NCBI GenBank assembly: GCA_051294375.1 | Contig: CM119269.1 | Location: forward strand, 18,240,410 to 18,304,409 | Length of the DNA stretch: 64,000 nt | Direction: 5' to 3' | Source: Paraspadella gotoi | Taxonomy: Eukaryota; Animalia; Chaetognatha | Shown here: positions 1,394 through 12,142 of the stretch, one piece after another | Layout of the letters: the number at the start of each line of letters is the position of its first letter | How positions within the stretch are numbered: position 1 is the stretch's first letter | Program-made: the position numbers and the translations under genes | Notes under the pieces: model-generated | The model's database searches: none | What the model was told of the DNA's origin: nothing | Seen by the model: only the letters and a program-made list of their open reading frames with translations

Positions 1394-1699
1394 CTCTTTT
1401 TTTTGTCGTTTTTTCTTTTCTGTTTTTCTGTTCTATTGCTACTCTTAATAGCTTAAAAAATATTTTTTTTCATTATTTTAAGAAATATAATTGAAAAAAA
1501 GTTTCAAACAAAATCGGGGTAAAATTTCATTCTCGTTCAAAAATTAAAAAGACTGACGACAATTTACTAAATGACGACAGGATATTTTTCTTTGATGAAA
1601 TAGCAATCCAAAAATGCTTTTTTACGAAACGTAGTCGAATTTACATGTGACCATTGTAAGTAGTAATAGAGTAAAGTCTCTTCGGTCTTTAATTAAGAC

Positions 1700-4600
1700 T
1701 TAATTCCAACACAGAACGCCCTCAATTCCAACTCCTGGTGAAAAAAGAAAAAGCCAAACAGTCGTAGTGACATTTTGCCCGTGAAAATCTTTGGCCGTGA
1801 GTCGTGACAATGTCCGCTCAATCACGAACATCACCGCCGGGACAACATGTTGCCTATTCTGAGAGTATTTCCCACGAAATCTGAAACGAGGCGTTTTTTT
1901 TTTTAATCCAACGAAATATTTTGAAAAAAAGAAGCTTCATTCTTACTTCCACATTATCAAGCATTGCCATTCCTCAGTCTCACCTCCGTCTGTTCCCTCT
2001 TTAACCCCAAGCTCTTCTCCACAGCCTCGATGATTCTCGTGCCTCCAGGGTGCACCCCCCACAGATCAACGTCCGAAGCTTTCAAATCGTGTCGTCCCCA
2101 GAAAACTCTCCACGTAGGGGCGGGCGTTGCTTTCGAGATATTGGCTTAGAATCTTAGCGGATGAGGGAAGTTTTATGAATAATAAAAAAATGAGTCAATT
2201 TCCTCACATTGAATTGTCCTGACCTTGGACAGAGTGCAAGTGATTCGCGTTCGATGTGATGCCCAAAATGATTCCATCTTCTGTTCCTTCGGAAAGCATC
2301 GAGTGATGATCGATCACGCGAACCAAAATTTTGTTTTTCTTTATGAAAGTAAATAAAAATTCAGTAATGTCAAATTTTAAATTTAATGTATGTACAGGAA
2401 AATGTACAATGTGCAGTACAATTGTACATGTTAAAATCCTAAGCCGAAGATACATAGGAAGTTTAATTATGAGAAGTAAAACAGGGGCAAATATAGCGAT
2501 GTTCAAGAGTGTATTTTACAGGAAAATATTGACAGTCAAGTAAGCAATAAGAGAGAGAAGCAGACGATCCACCGACACAGAGCAGCGAGGAGAGTCCGGC
2601 GAAGCCGAGAGTGCCCCCGCACCCGAGTGAGGAGAGCAGAGATGAGATTGAGAGAGAGCAGACGAGACGACACACACCAAAGAGAGACGAGAGACGACAG
2701 GATCCAGAACACCCGAGAGGAGACACGAGAGACCGACCGACGAGAGACGCGACGGAGAGGGGAGGAGCCGCACCCGAGAGGACGAGGACGATCCCGGCGA
2801 AGACGAGCGGGCGAGAATGAACAACGACGACCGAGAGGAACGGACGAGAACGCAGAGGACGCTGACGTAGAGGCAGTGCCGGACGGAGCGGCCGGCGGTC
2901 GCCGAAGCGGCCACTCGCGCGGAGGCACAACGCCTGAGAGCCGCGGGCGGGCATGGGAGGTAAGAGGCGAGCCCCTGACGGGCCGTGGCCACACGAGCCA
3001 ACTAGGGCAGGACTGATTCGGAGAACGAAGACGAGAGGGAGAAACAAGAGAGGAGACGAAATATGAGAGAGACGAGAAGAACGAGGGAAAAATAAATGCC
3101 GGACGCAGGACGATCGAGCAAAGCCAAACAGCGACGCGCCGCTGAGAGGGAGCTGGGAGAGAAAAAAAAAACATAAAGAAACGAAGACGAGCAATAGTAA
3201 GGAGAGAGGAAAGAGAGAAAGTGAGCGAGAGGGGAGAGAGGTCGCGTGGGCCGCAGATCACACCCTAGCAGACGGAGACATGCAAGTGGAGCCGAATGTC
3301 CATCCTCCACGAGGGAAGTACCGACACGTGACAGGATCCGCTCTGAGTGGTACGTTGGCTCATCCTCGACACACACTGGGGCTGTCCCTCCGGCCTGCAT
3401 CACATCAGCCCCACGGCAAACGCGGGCGCGCGCTTTTCTCCCGTACATCTCTACAAGGACGCCTTGTCGGACTGTACGAGCACGCGTGAGCAATTCAGAC
3501 CCCCCCGCGACCCGACCGCGAGGAGAGCGGACCCTAGAGTGCGAGTAGAGAACCAGGATTAAGACGGACGAGAAATGGAGAAGATACCTATTGAGAGAGA
3601 GACGAGAGAGAGAGAGAGAGAGTAGAAGGATGAGAGAGAGAGAGAGAAAGCAGAGAGAGAGAGAGAGAAAGAAGAGAGCAGAAGAGAGAGAGAGAGAAAG
3701 AGATTGCATATCAATATATCTTCGGCCAAAAGGCGGTCAGGTCTGTGGATCGGCGAGAGTGTTTTCCACAGTCCACCAATTAGTTTCATCACTCCTACGC
3801 ACCCCCAATCTCTCGTCGTCTCCCGAAGACGGCGGCAGCACATCCATCGCTGAAAATGGCGTGCAATATGGCGTCATTGACGTTGTCCTCGAAGGTCGTG
3901 TGGACGGAACTTATCTCCACGCAGACCAATACCGACACCTCTGAATGTGGACGGGGAAGAGCGGATGATAATGATCATTATTAAAGTTCGTGGATTGTGT
4001 TACATACCTCGGGAAAGTTTGGGACGACTTTTGACCCAATTACTGGCGACGCAAAATCCGTTCATGGCCGCCGCGCAGCCCATAAACCCCACGAGGACTC
4101 TCTCTGCAAGTGTAAAGGTAAGAAAAACCTCTCATCTATGTTTAGTAAATTTTTTACTTTCTCGTCCATTGATGTCAATTGCCTGTCGTCCGACGTTAGA
4201 GATAAAGCGTTTATCAAATATACATCCAGTCCGGGTCCAAGAAATCCAGTGCTTGATACTACTACCAGTTGCCCGATCTGAAATTTAAAATTAAAATTTA
4301 CGAAGAGTAGTTTTAGGCTAACTTTGAGCTATTCAAAAAAAAGGTTTAAAATCCAAAGATCCCACCATAGCATAAATGAATAATGTATGGGTTGTAATAG
4401 TTTAAAAATTATCAAATTATCATTTGATTAGTGATAAAACTAATAAACCACCAAAGCCTGTCCAAAGTCAGTGGCAAAAGAGCTTAGTTATTAAATGAAT
4501 GGATAATTTTTCTATTGGTTGTACCAATCTCATGTTAAACAACTAGAGGTATTTATATACATATAGATATAAATAATAAAAAAAGTGTCAGGATACTCTT

Positions 4601-5719
4601 TATATTATGAAATGTGTTATGATATTTCAAAGAATGTTTCAACTGTATGAAAAGACCACTCCCTTAAGTATTAGGTCGGGGAATACTATATATTTCAATA
4701 TATATATATATATCTATATTTCATATATATATTGATATTCATATATATATTTCATATTTTATATACACCTCATCTGTTGTAACTCCGGCTGTTTGTATTG
4801 CTCTTCTCACGACGTCGAGGACGAGAGATGAAGCGACTTCCTCAAACTTGGAAATTCTCTCTTCGACCGGAATTTTGAAGGAGCCGTCCTGTAGGATGCA
4901 ACTGGTGTTTAGTTTAGTTTAATCAATGTTTTAAGTCATTTTTAAATTTTTTAAACCTCGGGAAAAAATTCCGCTGAAGGGTGGTGCCCATTGAGGATTG
5001 AATTTGGTCGAGATCTTGAGACTGTAAAAAAGTTCAAAAACTACAATTTTTTTAAAAAATTTAAAAAAATAACTTCTTTTATGATTTAGAAGTGATTTGG
5101 AAGTGAGGGAATGATTCCCTTTGTTTCAGATTTCGTCGTTTCTCATTCTCTCTCTTCTCTCTGTTTTCTTTTCTTTTTGTTTCTCTTCGCTTCTCTTCTC
5201 TTTCATATATCTAATTTTTTCTCTTCATATATCTCATTTCTTTTCTTCTCTTCTCTTCTCTTCTCTTCTCTTCTCTTCTCTTCTCTTCTCTTCTCTTCTC
5301 TTCTCTTCTCTTTCATATATCTCATTTTTTCTACCAGATCATTTTTGTAAATTGTTGGCCTTGAAAAATGATCAATAAAATTTCCCCGATTCCCATAACT
5401 AAAGACTGTTTAGTAATTATTATTTTTCATAATTGATGCTTAGCAAAAATTTTTAACGTTACCGTTTATTGCAATCTCAGACCATCAAAGATTACCACTT
5501 GATTACTTGATTACCTTCATCGATCTTTGGTGTCACCGCTAAATGCCGTTTAAGGATTTTCGTGTTTTCGTAAATTTTTTGAAGACGAGGCTTTACTTTA
5601 ACGACGTCGACGGCGGACTGCGCTACCAATAGCGCTTCGTTCTGCGTTAGGGAGTTGGCGGGATTGCCCGACGCCAGCGCAAGGATATAGGAAGAATCGG
5701 CTGTCGTCTCACCGTTCAT
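1700..5719 (-). CDS. Type III polyketide synthase (chalcone/stilbene synthase superfamily; brown-algal PKS1 / Mycobacterium PKS18-like), 9 exons, ~393 aa, with several 1-bp indels in the 3' exons
   Basis: Manually spliced exons: 5515-5719 (MNGETTADSSYILALASGNP..TQNEALLVA..IYENTKILKRHLAV), 4957-5021 (..EFFPE), 4769-4888 (DGSFKIPVEERISKF..AGVTTDE), ~4183-4277 (IGQLVVVSSTGFLGPGLD), 4008-4103 (RVLVGFMGCAAAMNGF, catalytic Cys), 3803-3940 (VCVEISSVHTTFEDNVNDAILHAIFSDGCAAA), 2224-2338 (SEGTEDGIILGITSNxITCTLSK), 1984-2152 (VDLWGVHPGGTRIIEAVEKSLGL, catalytic His), 1700-1880 (SWEILSExGNMLxPAVMFVIE...LFSPGVGIEGVLCWN*, catalytic Asn). Introns are GT-AG except an ambiguous, possibly GC, donor after exon 4. 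Confidence 0.93.
4625..4691 (+). repeat. ~67-bp dispersed repeat fragment in PKS intron 3, second copy at 25304-25370 in an ALDH intron
   Basis: TTTCAAAGAATGTTTCAACTGTATGAAAAGACCACTCCCTTAAGTATTAGGTCGGGGAATACTATAT versus TTTCAAAGAATGTTTCTATTATATGAAAATACCACTCCCTTCAGTATTAGATCGGGGAAGACTATAT. Confidence 0.8.
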
Positions 5720-6094
5720 TTTTTAGCGGCTCAAGTTTTTCTTGGTTAATATTCAGACGAGAAAAGTTAGCTTTATTTTTTAATTAACTTTTTTTAGTAG
5801 TTAAGAAAGCAACGAAAAGAAAAGTTTTTCAATTTAGCAACGGCAGGGATCAACCGAGGCGCGGAATTTCAGTGGTCGCCTCGTATTACCACTAGTACCA
5901 TCTAGTTTTGCCAACATTTTTTATTTGTCACGGCTTTAATATCCAGAGTAAACAAATAAATGAAAAAAAAACTGATTAAAAATATTATTTCGTCTTTAAA
6001 AAAATCGTCTCGATACCAATAGTCTTGATATATATATCAGGAGACAAAATGATATTTGTCTTAGGATTAAGACTTTAAGCCCTGTCGGTTGCTC

Positions 6095-6380
6095 TTTTTA
6101 GTTTTGCCGCGAGTACTCGCGGAGCATCTCTATAAGTCACTTTTCGGACGGTCGGTCCGTCTGTCCTTCGGTATGTCTGTCCGTGGGTCTGTCCCACTTA
6201 CATTAAAAATGGTTATAACTTGCCTATTTTTTTTGCTCATTTGTTAAAAATCAAATCTAAGCGACTACTGGCGCCGCCTTTTGTTTTTAAAAATGTTTTA
6301 TAAACTATAAGGAATAAATGATATGATAAGTAAAAAGAAAAGTAATGCGCTGCAACACCTTGGAATAACCGTTCCTTGTT
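6095..6380. mobile_element. Non-autonomous interspersed element, DINE-1/Helentron-associated (HINE)-like, copy 1
   Basis: TTTTAG..CTCTATAAGTCACTTTT, a GTCC/GTCG/GTCT microsatellite core, CCCACTTA..TTAAAAAT and a TGGAATAACCGTTC(C)TTGTT end are all shared with 28871-29117. T-rich flanks; 16-bp perfect palindrome CCGCGAGTACTCGCGG at 6107-6122. The family label is inferred from this architecture. Confidence 0.6.
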
Positions 6381-7114
6381 TTTATTAAGAGAACCATCAA
6401 TAATATTTTAAAAATTGTTATTTTTTCGTTCACATTTTGGTTAAAATTGTTCCTCTTTTTTTTTCTTTTTCGGATATCTAATAACTGGGATAAACAATGA
6501 AGTAAAAGCAGTTATTTCTCGTTTTAAATATTTTTTTTTAAATCCCAACCCGCTTATCCGAGGGCTCTCAAGCTCTTTATCATATTTTTCGTCACGCAAA
6601 AACAATGCATCCTTGTTTAATGTTTATATTTTTTTGGGGGGGGATAAAACCTCAGAATTTGAAATTAAAGTTGAATAGACTTTGATATTTGCCGTGAAAA
6701 TATGAAAGTTAAAAAAAAAACTTACGTAATCTATAAAAAAAATTATTTTTAGAGGATTACGAAAGGACAATGGTTATGAAAAGTGAAGAAAGAATAACGA
6801 TATTAGATAGGGATGAGCAGTATTCGACGAATTTTTTATTAGAGTAGAGACGAAAGAAAAAACAGTAGTGACATTATCCTTTCGGGTTGAGAAAATCATA
6901 GATACGGCCGGTTTGTTTGACTATCTATCTATCTTTGATTTTTTATATTATTACTATTCTTATTATTAATATTATTATTTTTACTATTATGATTATGTTA
7001 TATTTATCCTAGATTTTTATATTTCTAATCTTTCTCGTCTTCATAACAAAGTCCATTACGAAAGGCGCTCATTTCGTCTCGACCCGACGCATTATCTTTC
7101 TGGTCGTTCTCTCC

Positions 7115-10100
7115 TCATTCTCCGTCTCCTCCCCTTATATCTATAACGAAATGATTTCCTGCTGTTTCTTCTTCTTCTTCCTCGTATCTTCTCCTTTCAT
7201 ATTTAAATAATTGGTTATCAGAGTTGTTAATAACTCGCTCGTCGGCGCTCTGCTTGTCCGTTTCTACTCGGCAATCGGCGCTGTTATTGTCAAGAAAGAA
7301 TCCCCATTTTTTCGCAAAGTTTTTGTCGTAGAAACGAAGAAAGTTTTTCGCTCTGACGTGAGTCATGATGTCCGCACGAACGGAGACGCCAAGTTTTCCG
7401 TCTTCGGCGATATCGGCGTCGATCTCGATTTCGGCACCGGAGATTTCGGCGCCGGTATCCGGTTCCGTCTCGTCGTCGGGAGTGGCGCCGCTTTTGACGT
7501 CGGCCAAAAAGTCGGCGTCGAGAAAGATGAGTTTGAGGGCGCGGATTTGGCCTTCGATCGCCAGATGGTGCGCCTAGTTTTGAAGTGATCAAGGGGTTTA
7601 GAAACCTTGTAATAAAAAAAAATTTGGTAACTATGTATTTAGTAATTTTTTGGAAGTAGGCAGTTAGTAGGCTAAAGATAAATAAAGAATATGAAATAGA
7701 GCAAGTTGAGTCGAGTAAAGCCAAGAAAAACCTGGGGCGAAAGGCTATGCAGAGAATAAATTATAATTTGTTTTGTTTTCACCGGACCTGGTTAAATTCG
7801 AAAATACGCCAATCGTCTCGCAGATATTTTTTCGACACGAGGGCGACAAAGCAGCCAGAGTTTTGGATGGCTTCGCTAAGGGCTTCCGCCTTGCACCGGC
7901 CGAGCAGTTCGCAGCCGCCGCGGTCGTGGTCGTCGCGGACGAACCCTTGGAGGCCGAGTCGGTCGACGGCTTCCAAAAGAGACTCTAATTTCGGACGTTC
8001 GTCCTCGTAGTCTGCGTCGGTGTAAGAGAAGTAAACGTCGTAGGCGAAATTTATTTCCTGGAAACGTTTGTCTTTATTCTTGATCAAACGATACGCTTTC
8101 GGAAAATTGCTCCAAATTGCAATCGCCAGCGTTTCTCTGTAAAAGCTGGCTGTCACGATGACTAAGGATATCGCAGCAATGACCAGGCCGATGCCGACGA
8201 TCAGAAATGTTAACTTTCCCACGACTCGGTTGCCATAGTCACCGTCGTTGCATATGTCGGCGTATTCAATTTCGGTCATGTTGCGCAGAACATAAACTGC
8301 GATGTCGTTATTATAGTCCAAACCGTGACCGTTGCAAGCGACGCCGTCAATGTCTTCGACGTGGAACCGCCAACCGTCGTCCCGCACAAAATCCCACGGA
8401 TTCGGACTTTTGCATGAACACTTGAAAGGATTTCCTTTCAGCCTCATTTTTAATTTGGTGCCAAGTCCGTCTAAAGACTTTGGCGGAAGAGAAATTTGAT
8501 TGAAAGTCAGGTCGATGAGTTTCAAACGCGTTGGTCGAATCCTGTTGACTGCATCGAGAATGATAGACGCATCGGTGATCATATTCGAACTGAGATCGAG
8601 AGTCTCGCTCACTTTGAGCAATATGTCCAAATGAGTCTCATTCACCGAACTGACGTCGTTGGCCGAGAGGTCGAAATCGTAGACGAACCCATCCTCCAAC
8701 TGACTTGGCAGCGAAGATCGTTCGCGGCATTTTGCGCGTACTTTGTGAGGCGCAATTCTTGTGCACTCGCAATCGGCGTCACAAGTTGTTCTTCGACACC
8801 CAAACGCCTCGGCCTCGGTCTCCATGAGGTTTGACTTCACAGAGGCATTGGACGCCGCCGACGTTTTGCAGTCAAAGTTTCGAAAAAGCGGAGATCCGTA
8901 GAACCGTTGACATCGCATGACCCGACCTTCGAGAGATTCATCGGGAATTGTCTCGAGAGAATTGAGGAAAAAGGCAGAGTCTTGCATGGCGCATCCTTGG
9001 CAGACGAGGTCGCCGCGTTGGGTGTCCAAGTTCTTGATCAATATGACGATTCCGTGAGAGTGGTACCAGGAGACGAATTCCATCAGCTTTCGTAGATTAA
9101 ATGAGGAAAGATGATTGTAATGGACGACTGAGAAATTGGAGAATATTTTAATAGAAAAATAGAAAAATACAAAATAGAAAAGTTATTCGATTTTATGAAA
9201 AGTCATAAGGGGGAGGAAGGCAATGGGAGTATTTATAAAAATATTTCGACTTCATTTTTTAAGTAATCGTTAACGAGGATAAAGAAAATACTGGAGAAAA
9301 AGAGAGAGAGGGAAAAAGATATGTATCTTTTCAGAACCGTAAATGACCAAAAATTCTAAAATTGGGGCAAAACAGAGGCTTGAAATCCAGTCTTTCATAA
9401 TTTTGATCATTAGTCACAATTAGGGTTGGGTGACCCAGTTCTTTAGTCATTTTTTGTTTTGAATGAAAATCTCTAAAAGTGTTTTCACTCGCACCGCTTT
9501 CTTCATTATTAAATTACTCTTATTTAATACTCCCGGTGCATGTGATGACGTTTTTAAAAAGAATTGAGAAAAGTTTTTAAAATATTTTATCGAATACAAT
9601 TATTTCGGTTATTTTTAATTTAGGTACGTAATTTGTCTCAAGAAACGTAAAAAAAGAGACTCCTAACATATTATTATTTAGTAATAGGGATTGAGGACAT
9701 TGCCTGACCATTGTGACCAAGTTCAGGGGCAAGATTGAATGATTGAATGAAAAATGTTTGTATTGGTGTACCAATTTTATAATACTTACCGATTGAGTAT
9801 GCGGTCATCTTATTACATTGCACTTTTGTTTCATTGCCTTTCTTGTCCATCGTTGGGAAGTAAATGTCATTGATAAGATTATAACCGACGATAATGGTCG
9901 TATCAACGATGTAGTTAGAAATCCGTAATGGCCACAAATTAAATATCGTCAGTTGATTCTCTTGCAAATAAAGTTTTTGTATCGATGGCAACACCTCCAA
10001 GATATTTTCCACAGTCTTCATTCCATTTTCGTTCAAATAAAGGTAAGCCAATCGAGGTAAGTTTCTAAATATGTTCTTTTTCACGGATCGAATTTTGTTG

Positions 10101-12142
10101 TTTTCCAAATCGAGCAGCTCCAAATTCGGCAGATGGTCGAAGGCGTTTGCCTCAATGGTGTGAATCTGATTGTGGCCGAGCAAAACCTCGGAGAGCCACG
10201 ACAAATTTCTAAAGACGCCAGATGTAAGGATCGTCAGGTCGTTTCCGGTCAGATCCATCCCTTCTAGGTTCGCAGGAAATACTCCGCTCTTCAAGCTTTT
10301 TATTAAGTTATTACTTAAAAATACAAACTTTATTGTAGGCGACGGTTTGAAAGTTTCCCGATTTAACCGAGGGAGTTTGCAGCCTATGCAGCTGAGAGTC
10401 ACCATCGTTTCAGAGTAAATAGCTATCTTGGAGACGTCGGTGTATTTCGCCTCAAGGGAGTCCACTTCTATACGACCTTCTAATGAGCCAAGTGGGTTTT
10501 CATCGAGGACCAACCTTTTCAACTTCGAGTTGGAAAGAGACGAAAAGTTTGTGAGTTGATTCTTGTCCATAAACAGAGTAGAGCCTGAGAAAGAAGTCAA
10601 GAGAATTTATTTGAGTCATGATAAATAGTGCGTGTGGAATTTTACGATATAAAAATCATTTCCACCTGGTGGGAGTTTGGTTAAAATTGAATCGTCGTCC
10701 ACGACCTCGAGACCAGCGTCTCTAATAGTGACTTCCATAGTTTTGTTAAATCTCGCGTCCTGCCACAATCTCGGGAGGAGGCCGTCCTTGAATCCAATTC
10801 CTTTGAACGAAACTTGCCCAACTACTTTGATCGTGTGCAGGCTAAAAGATTAAGCAAAATACATTTATATGTATTTATAGACTATCATAATTATATATGT
10901 ATAATAACATCGGAGAAGTATCAAGCCACCGAAAACAAATCGGAACGGAAGCTCGGGCGATCTCCGCGGAAATGAAATCGACGAATCCTGATTGGAACCG
11001 GAATCGACCAATCAGCTTGCAGAATCATCGGAACTGTAATTTTTACCCTTAGTATAAATAGACCTAGCTTGTTCTACTTCTAGTTTCAGTCTCACCGTCA
11101 CCTTTATTCTCAGAATAAAATCCCATCTTGATTATCATAATTTGTGTGGAAACTAATAAAGAACATCAGTCAGGATATGATGCGATTATTTTGGTTTTGC
11201 TAACCTCCCCAAGTTGGCCGTCAAGACGATATCTTGCGCTACTTTTAAATTCGCTCCATTTATAGTCAAACTCGTCAACCAAGGAGCATCCAATATCCAA
11301 GGCTCCGTCAGCTGCACCCAACACTCTGACCCTCTGCCGTGCGAATTGATATCCAGGAATGAGAGACGCTTCGTCGAATTGGCCGATAGAGGGACGATCG
11401 TAGAGTTACACTCCGTTTTTATGGCAACTCCGACGAAAAACATCTAGTCGGAATTATGTGCGTTTTATTTCGAATTCAACATGGTTGATTAGCTACAGAC
11501 AATAACATCAAGCAACTAGTTATAAACAAAAAAAAACAGTAATAATTGTTATGAGTTAGTGATAGAACCGTTCAATATAAGCAGTCCCTGAGCTTCGGAT
11601 CCGGCTGTAACACCGTGTTACAGGCGGGTTAGGCGACCCGTCCCTCTTAACTGCAAGGCGACCACCGAGCTAGAATCCCGGACCTTTGGGTTGGGAGGCG
11701 AAAGACTTGCCTCCTGCACCAAAGGGCCCTGATGATCGGTTGGAGGATTTTAGTCCACCATAACGGGATAATTAATTAAATAGTAGAGAAATGAATTATT
11801 CAGAGGACAGTGTTTTTCGACAAATAGATCTTGGTAATTAAATTTTTTCAGCAATGTTAGATAACACTACTAACAGTGCATATAACTGTATTTAGTGGCT
11901 GTTGAGTGTTGAGAATACAGCTAACACTACCTATATCCGGACACATTCCCGATCCAACTTCCCTCGCACTCACTTACGACTCCGCGGTTGATCAACACCG
12001 CCTCGAGTTCAAACAACTCGTCGCCGCCGGAAAAGCAGTGGAGGACGAAGCTGCAGCGGACGTGGCTGACGTAGCAGGAGGCGCGGACTGCTGAGGCGAG
12101 GAAAAGGAGTAGGAGGACGAGGCGTACAAAAATCAGCGCCAT
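7115..12142 (-). CDS. Toll-like receptor, multiple-cysteine-cluster (Toll/protostome) type: signal peptide, LRRs, internal LRRCT/LRRNT, LRRCT, TM and TIR, ~1057 aa
   Basis: Phase-consistent exons 11978-12142 (MALIFVRLVLLLLFLASAVRA signal peptide), 11205-11443, 10666-10841, 9790-10584 (LxxLxLxxN repeats, e.g. LPNLELLDLENNKI), 7788-9127 (CDADCEC LRRNT, GNPFKCSC LRRCT, TM LTFLIVGIGLVIAAISLVIV, TIR box1 YDVYFSY) and 7115-7573 (end of TIR plus tail). Total 3174 nt with no frameshift. Confidence 0.92.
11590..11728 (-). mobile_element. Possible degenerate tRNA-derived SINE head in TLR intron 1
   Basis: The minus strand reads GGCCCTTTGGTGCAGGAGGCAAGTCTTTCGCCTCCCAACCCAAAGGTCCGGGATTCTAGCTCGGTGGTCGCC, with tRNA-like spacing of a degenerate A box and B box. 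It is a GC-rich island in an AT-rich intron. Confidence 0.35.

Follow-up and report, generated by a model that had tools for sequence, protein, structure and literature searches.

The window analysed here, a 64,000-nt stretch of contig CM119269.1 (assembly GCA_051294375.1), carries on the minus strand of 1700-5719 a gene in which the entire type III polyketide synthase (PKS) motif series is found in order. The gene is real: it consists of nine exons running from 5719 to 1700 and encodes a protein of about 393 aa, the length of a read-through model with X placed at frame breaks. This bears out an earlier note on the same DNA, which had read nine minus-strand exons and a type III PKS of this length with a Cys-His-Asn triad from the letters. 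Nine public runs from three studies, all under one organism label, contain part of the stretch, and four of them (X1, X4, X5 and X9) were compared with it. None of the runs is recorded as RNA; X9 was classed as RNA because spliced contigs of two genes occur in it, that of the PKS gene and that of a neighbouring Toll-like receptor (TLR) gene (contig 27, in which 7572 is joined to 7787). The features of the PKS gene, in the order of transcription and with the evidence for each, are as follows.

5720..5794, minus strand: 5' untranslated leader of at least 75 nt (X9 contig 24 starts at 5794; frame translation)
5515..5719, minus strand: exon 1, coding part of 205 nt, with the ATG and the GNP and TQNEAL motifs (exon end matched by the X9 contig)
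4957..5021, minus strand: exon 2, 65 nt, a divergent loop with a short insertion (model; X9 length sum)
4769..4888, minus strand: exon 3, 120 nt (model; profile match)
4278..4768, minus strand: intron 3, containing high-copy host repeats (blastn; read depth)
4183..4277, minus strand: exon 4, 95 nt in the window and 94 in the reads, VVVSSTGFLGPGLD (contigs; model)
4008..4103, minus strand: exon 5, 96 nt, GFMGCAAAMNGF, with the catalytic Cys codon at 4077-4075 (motif; alignment)
3803..3940, minus strand: exon 6, 138 nt, the segment lining the tunnel (structure-sequence match to 4B0N)
2224..2338, minus strand: exon 7, 115 nt in the window and an inferred 113 in the transcript, GTEDGI (X9 length sum; model)
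1984..2152, minus strand: exon 8, 169 nt in the window and 168 in the transcript, WGVHPGG (both ends matched by X9, with one gap)
1700..1880, minus strand: exon 9, coding part, GNML and FSPGVGIEG, stop near 1702-1700 (motifs; X9 contig; profile)
1520..1699, minus strand: 3' untranslated region (UTR), the transcript extending at least to 1520 (X9 contig 24)

The catalytic His codon lies in exon 8 (2052-2050) and the catalytic Asn codon in exon 9 (1851-1849), which carries several indels. The introns of the model measure 67-1,464 nt; all eight acceptors end in AG, and seven donors are GT with donor 4 being GC. Intron 4 (4182-4104, 79 nt) is thus an inferred GC-AG intron within a likely transferred gene, its donor following directly on exon 4 and lying in a context that agrees with the GC-AG consensus. 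Alternative donors of GT type close to where exon 4 ends were tried and rejected, as they fail to satisfy at once the frame and the 626-nt total described below. Exon 1 contains no N-terminal signal anchor, and the enzyme is predicted to be cytosolic because the protein starts about 11 residues ahead of the core and an in-frame stop lies two codons upstream of the ATG, inside the transcribed leader. The largest intron, intron 6 (2339-3802, 1,464 nt), is GC-rich (54%), mostly degenerate CT-rich sequence with thin cover by short-read contigs, and could represent either an insertion or noise in the assembly at this place. Pfam gave no match in the long open reading frame within it, nor in candidates at 11169-12091.

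Against a profile of 144 PKS1-like proteins the full model scored 462 bits, the best of 100 shuffles reaching 0.5. Nine six-frame pieces within 1700-5722 match successive parts of this profile in gene order and cover eight of the nine exons, exon 2 giving no match of its own in the six-frame search of the window; nothing else in the window fell below E 1.3, and no second copy was found there. Single exons matched both Pfam domains of the family, exon 1 matching Chal_sti_synt_N at E 0.021 and exon 8 matching Chal_sti_synt_C at E 1.3e-4, weak hits that do not reach the curated cut-off. The best NCBIfam model was type III PKS in four of the six exons tested, and the exons favour it over KAS III. 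Among solved structures the top matches are all type III PKSs, with the Ectocarpus PKS1 (4B0N) first, mycobacterial PKS18-type enzymes second and plant enzymes third; for exon 6 the E values are 8e-17, 4-5e-9 and 0.28 or worse, respectively. The protein is therefore assigned to the type III PKSs, and not to the thiolases, KAS III or HMG-CoA synthases, the three families that the earlier note had named as best matches that would refute its reading.

Residue numbers were transferred from a brown-algal protein that aligns gap-free to 4B0N and is 48% identical to the window protein. The catalytic triad of Cys171, His311 and Asn344 corresponds to 194, 331 and 364 of 4B0N and is invariant in all 144 relatives. 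Gly190 (4B0N numbering) and all eight PKS18 tunnel positions (listed in PMC6274091) bear the same residues as brown-algal PKS1. PKS18 and the actinobacterial alpha-pyrone synthases have the same tunnel architecture, but at the positions where PKS18 has C205, N208 and A209 the window protein has S, H and T, as PKS1 does, and its identity to the Nocardia relatives is about 37-38%. Judged by these residues and matches, the gene is PKS1-like and not PKS18-like. It differs from the Ectocarpus PKS1 and ochrophyte group in its animal host, its long branch and its missing N-terminal signal anchor; a signal peptide or anchor is described for many of the enzymes from stramenopiles (bioRxiv 10.1101/2024.02.19.579948).

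When the window is spliced as it stands, the reading frame is not open. At least six single-base breaks occur in exons 4, 7, 8 and 9, near 4196, 2338, 2250, 2093, 1856 and 1842, and one or two further breaks are probably present at about 1775-1742. Exon 4 has one extra base at 4196, and exon 7 has two surplus bases in addition to a two-base swap at 2255-2256. Such breaks, and a number of changes at conserved columns that exceeds that of every clade member, would be expected of a decaying pseudogene, its transcript a non-coding residue of a transferred gene. The reads argue otherwise. The base at 4196 is absent from the contigs of all three DNA runs (X1, X4 and X5), the contigs over exons 1-3 show zero differences from the window, and the introns and UTR between 1500 and 3800 also carry gaps, as is seen in unpolished sequence. 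A spliced contig of 1,432 nt in X9 reads from 5794 to 5515, continues with 626 bases, then covers 2152-1984 and passes straight to 1880-1520, and its boundaries at 5515, 2152, 1984 and 1880 coincide with modelled splice sites. The 626 bases stand for exons 2-7, which amount to 629 nt in the window, and the model calls for exactly three deletions there; exon 8 is likewise shorter by exactly the base required. Exons 1, 8 and 9 are matched by position in this contig, and exons 2-7 by length and not base by base.

The frame breaks point to errors of the assembly, because the 4196 base is absent in three DNA runs and the X9 contig fits both the exon ends and the restored lengths. The gene is transcribed and spliced, with a frame that is very probably intact, and the retained triad and tunnel residues speak further against decay; the pseudogene explanation is accordingly regarded as quite improbable. 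Of the spliced open reading frame that had been proposed from the letters, the exon ends and the model have stood, but the frame itself is broken in this assembly and is restored only with the reads. Against a fully intact frame it must be set that the breaks in exons 7 and 9 are not seen base by base, and that exon 9 with the UTR shows seven gaps in the X9 contig (net minus three), so that the final ~45 codons are read provisionally.

Whether the gene belongs to the genome in which it was assembled can be judged from its neighbours, three of which were annotated.

7060..10606, minus strand: TLR-type coding region with LRR, membrane span and TIR (Pfam TIR and LRR_8; Atlas neighbours)
about 23800-27645, plus strand: class 1/2 aldehyde dehydrogenase (ALDH) gene, multi-exon (Pfam; profile)
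27759-27834, plus strand: tRNA-Asn (GTT), about 115 nt past the ALDH stop

The nearest Atlas clusters of the TLR region are animal Toll-like receptors, with Mollusca, Annelida, Arthropoda and Chordata as the commonest taxa, and since these look-alikes are animal the host genome is likely that of an animal, an invertebrate. The ALDH exon at 25679-25945 scored 121 bits on vertebrate ALDH1A2/ALDH2 vs 92 on the maize enzyme.

The depth of contigs over the PKS exons tracks that of the TLR region, at 86-93 vs 84-91 in X1, 235-260 vs 217-257 in X4 and 8-17 vs 9-19 in X5, with the qualification that contig depth is not copy number and that the assembly itself may derive from the sample of X1 or of X4. 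Repeats in intron 3 match ALDH introns at 25153-25370 (by blastn, one piece at 85% over 85 nt with E 3e-21 and a second at 93% over 27 nt), and the summed depth of this intron in X1 is about 6,000 times the exon depth. A food item or symbiont, algal or protist, whose gene had been joined to animal DNA by contamination or mis-assembly would account for the fact that the named close relatives, among the matches listed, are all ochrophytes. It would also fit the finding that no contig or read in the runs compared spans the repeat at about 6120-6360, between the PKS and TLR genes. Because no contig bridges this interval, the linkage of the two genes rests on the assembly, the equal depth and the shared repeats. 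Contamination is nevertheless unlikely, because the depth equals that of the TLR region, over three runs that differ about 15-fold, and because the intron 3 repeats are common to ALDH introns. The gene is also contained in three studies, and at a best identity of 51% it stands far from an algal group whose members are much closer to each other.

We therefore consider a foreign gene of this kind very improbable, and are highly confident that the gene is intact and resident in the host genome, in which spliceosomal introns, host repeats and host-level coverage were all found. An intron-containing gene in an animal-like genome, as the earlier note had it, is thus upheld by the depth match, the repeats and the TLR and ALDH neighbours. 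Near-identity to a contaminant, which that note had weighed as an objection, was not observed, but its companion point holds in that no read links the gene to the TLR gene.

Some further observations concern the neighbourhood itself. The TLR coding region is in at least three pieces, and a reading frame with LRRs at 9674-10606 is possibly part of the same gene; cysteine clusters in the middle of its ectodomain resemble those of what we take to be multiple-cluster (Toll-type) receptors. The ALDH gene also has apparent single-base errors near its 5' end. At 30286-31184 a stretch of ~570 nt occurs twice in tandem with identical translations, possibly an assembly duplication around a gap.

Relatives were collected by searching proteins three times, the whole library once with a profile, and loci in four scans, and 372 proteins and 164 loci were compared; the matches listed are the best 120 of 141, 150 of 6,162 and 120 of 812. 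The best identity to any retrieved protein is 50.8% over more than 330 columns, and no relative closer than 51% was present among these proteins and loci, a sample in which no animal genome collection was searched. Named relatives in the ~50% range, among the matches listed, are ochrophytes, namely brown algae, Vaucheria, Tribonema, pelagophytes, Chromulina, Pseudopedinella and Fibrocapsa. None of the matches listed is named as animal or holozoan, most of them bearing no name. Exon 1 as a query returned 0 of 56 candidates and 0 of 480 stretches, and an Atlas search with the environmental protein P0008 gave plant chalcone synthase clusters only and no animal cluster among clusters of at least 50 members.

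Identities reach ~42% for cyanobacterial relatives, 37-38% for Nocardia and 37-39% for four viral contigs. The profile scores fall in the same order, with 462 bits on the eukaryotic, 349 on the cyanobacterial and 288 on the actinobacterial profile, although these profiles are not equally deep and allow no more than a rough comparison. An environmental subclade (P0008, P0033, P0034, P0009 and P0089) is similarly close, at ~49-50% to P0008 and P0033, and the GGTRII form of the His motif is common to it and the window protein and absent in 132 of the 144 clade members, but no supported clade joins the two.

In a quick tree of 96 rows the window protein lies inside a eukaryotic group of 52 rows, with a Shimodaira-Hasegawa-like approximate likelihood ratio (SH-aLRT) support of 95. 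A quick tree of 47 rows under a mixture model places it inside a 36-row group at 90, outside the 22-row clade that holds the named ochrophytes, and a 28-row tree makes it sister to all 21 other non-bacterial rows. Approximately unbiased (AU) tests were performed on the 28-row LG+G4 tree, for which 19 of 47 rows with long branches or redundancy had been dropped and whose groups were named after the earlier trees had been seen. A union with Actinobacteria was rejected (p-AU 1e-4), as was one with three cyanobacteria (p-AU 1e-7). Joining a 16-row ochrophyte-containing group was retained (p-AU 0.36), as were unions with the unnamed environmental subclade (four rows, p-AU 0.21) and with a viral protein (p-AU 0.096), and a position as sister to one brown-algal protein was weakly rejected (p-AU 0.032).

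The donor of the gene was most likely a microbial eukaryote, to judge from these comparisons. Brown-algal PKS1 proper is not supported as the source, given the weak rejection with one brown-algal row and the lack of a signal anchor, and the PKS18 or actinobacterial grouping was rejected on its p-AU value. Of the grouping named in the earlier note, the eukaryotic PKS1-like half (up to 51%) has survived and the PKS18 half (~38% to Nocardia) has not; its horizontal acquisition is likewise retained as a transfer, though a brown-algal donor in particular is not supported (p-AU 0.03).

Entry by another route, with a giant virus as the source or a bacterium as the direct donor and independent of algal genes, is suggested by the relatives on four viral contigs, by the retained grouping with one of them, and by the 28-row tree, in which the protein sits between the bacterial rows and the whole of the remaining eukaryotic and viral ones. 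Yet viral and cyanobacterial identities (37-39% and up to 42%) are below the approximately 50% of the eukaryotic group, nesting in the sampled bacteria was rejected, and a basal place is what long-branch attraction would be expected to produce. Such a route appears unlikely. Vertical descent of the gene from an early eukaryotic ancestor, followed by its loss from almost every animal lineage, could draw on the type III PKS domains known in fungi and Dictyostelium (PMC6274091). Against it, the closest grouping is with the ochrophyte-rich PKS1 proteins, and this stramenopile group is itself described as a bacterial acquisition (bioRxiv 10.1101/2024.02.19.579948); no holozoan or animal name appears among the matches listed. 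We consider this explanation barely credible, and horizontal transfer rather than vertical descent very likely.

Two introns of the gene fall near positions 214 and 260, whereas the two readable brown-algal exon ends, which come from database fragments, are at 210 and 262 and thus do not match them. In this small test the pattern fits a gain of introns after the transfer. The age of the transfer can be inferred from divergence and intron gain only, because no animal orthologue was found.

Four viral contigs (L081-L084; P0143, P0150), one of them labelled as a giant-virus metagenome-assembled genome, encode full-length PKS1-like enzymes with 43-44% identity to P0008, and giant viruses may carry such an enzyme between protists. 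A literature search on this pairing of enzyme and virus turned up one paper, which looks unrelated. By eye, P0149 and P0151 have N-terminal extensions resembling GAF domains, and P0155 has a C-terminal part resembling a sulfotransferase.

In the literature, a 2019 review citing Shimizu 2017 states that type III PKSs are absent from animals (PMC6688129). The single exception found is a table entry in a survey that lists the Mnemiopsis leidyi gene ML18354a as an animal horizontal transfer, a putative chalcone/stilbene synthase of bacterial origin that is expressed in development (PMC6005172). Its one other animal match was judged a contaminant in the same survey (PMC6005172). It resembles the window gene as an intron-bearing, expressed type III PKS-family gene, but has one intron and a bacterial origin, the comparison being made by description only (PMC6005172). 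This listing reduces the novelty, which the earlier note had said would be removed by orthologues already described across the animal lineage. No publication on a PKS1-type gene in an animal was found in a search whose scope left out most subscription journals.

On the evidence of the gene and its relatives, we regard as probable a transcribed, eight-intron PKS1-like gene that the host obtained long ago from a microbial eukaryote by horizontal transfer, and that encodes a predicted soluble homodimeric synthase of pyrones or (acyl)phloroglucinols. By analogy with the family, the homodimer would load a fatty acyl-CoA starter on Cys171; malonyl-CoA would be decarboxylated by His311 and Asn344, and the acyl tail would be held in a tunnel of the PKS1/PKS18 type. 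Two or three malonyl-CoA units would be added to the starter, and the resulting tri- or tetraketide would close by lactonisation to a pyrone or by Claisen cyclisation to a phloroglucinol ring, releasing alkyl-alpha-pyrones or (acyl)phloroglucinols. The products might serve in chemical defence or barrier functions, the weakest step of the scheme; the defensive role is a guess, for which the adjacency to the TLR gene is no evidence.

With malonyl-CoA the Ectocarpus PKS1 forms phloroglucinol, and when supplied with lauroyl- or palmitoyl-CoA it yields tetraketide pyrones and acylphloroglucinols (PMC6274091). Several points weigh against the proposed scheme as a whole. The protein keeps 115 of 156 conserved columns (at least 90% conserved), where clade members keep at least 132, with seven of the differences falling on breaks, and its specificity may have shifted in the course of this divergence. 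Its branch is long and its place differed across the three trees, and no animal orthologue was seen among the proteins and loci compared. Sargassum PKS1 enzymes make 4-hydroxy-6-methyl-2-pyrone, as reported (bioRxiv 10.1101/2024.02.19.579948), and the activity of the enzyme and the metabolites are here predictions from sequence.

We nevertheless consider it likely that the enzyme is an active synthase. It could be active and yet repurposed, either to make triacetic acid lactone or phloroglucinol without a primer, or to elongate acyl chains by a single step as part of lipid metabolism. The products of PKS1 enzymes vary (bioRxiv 10.1101/2024.02.19.579948), and the window protein has lost the signal anchor and carries 34 changes at conserved columns, including the inserted loop in exon 2. 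The tunnel positions, by contrast, match those of an enzyme that was crystallised with arachidonic acid (C20) in its tunnel (PMC6274091). Repurposing is thus less than likely, though deserving of serious attention, and a long-chain pyrone or acylphloroglucinol is somewhat favoured as the predicted product over other small polyketides.

Animal polyketide routes comprise type I PKSs and fatty acid synthase (FAS)-like enzymes, and an active enzyme at this locus would add a third. If the reading is true, no earlier type III PKS of eukaryotic origin would be known from an animal, and the host genome itself would encode the means to make compounds that in invertebrates are commonly ascribed to food or symbionts. 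As a spliced and expressed gene of PKS1 type with eight introns, it would be a much more domesticated case than the ctenophore one, and it points to transfer from a eukaryote to an animal. Short exons and an unpolished assembly hide such genes, which are then easily discarded as contaminants. That the animal itself makes phenolic lipids or phlorotannin-type building blocks by an algal or protist-type synthase is an appreciable but tentative possibility, and an active enzyme would make this gene a candidate source of invertebrate aromatic lipids.

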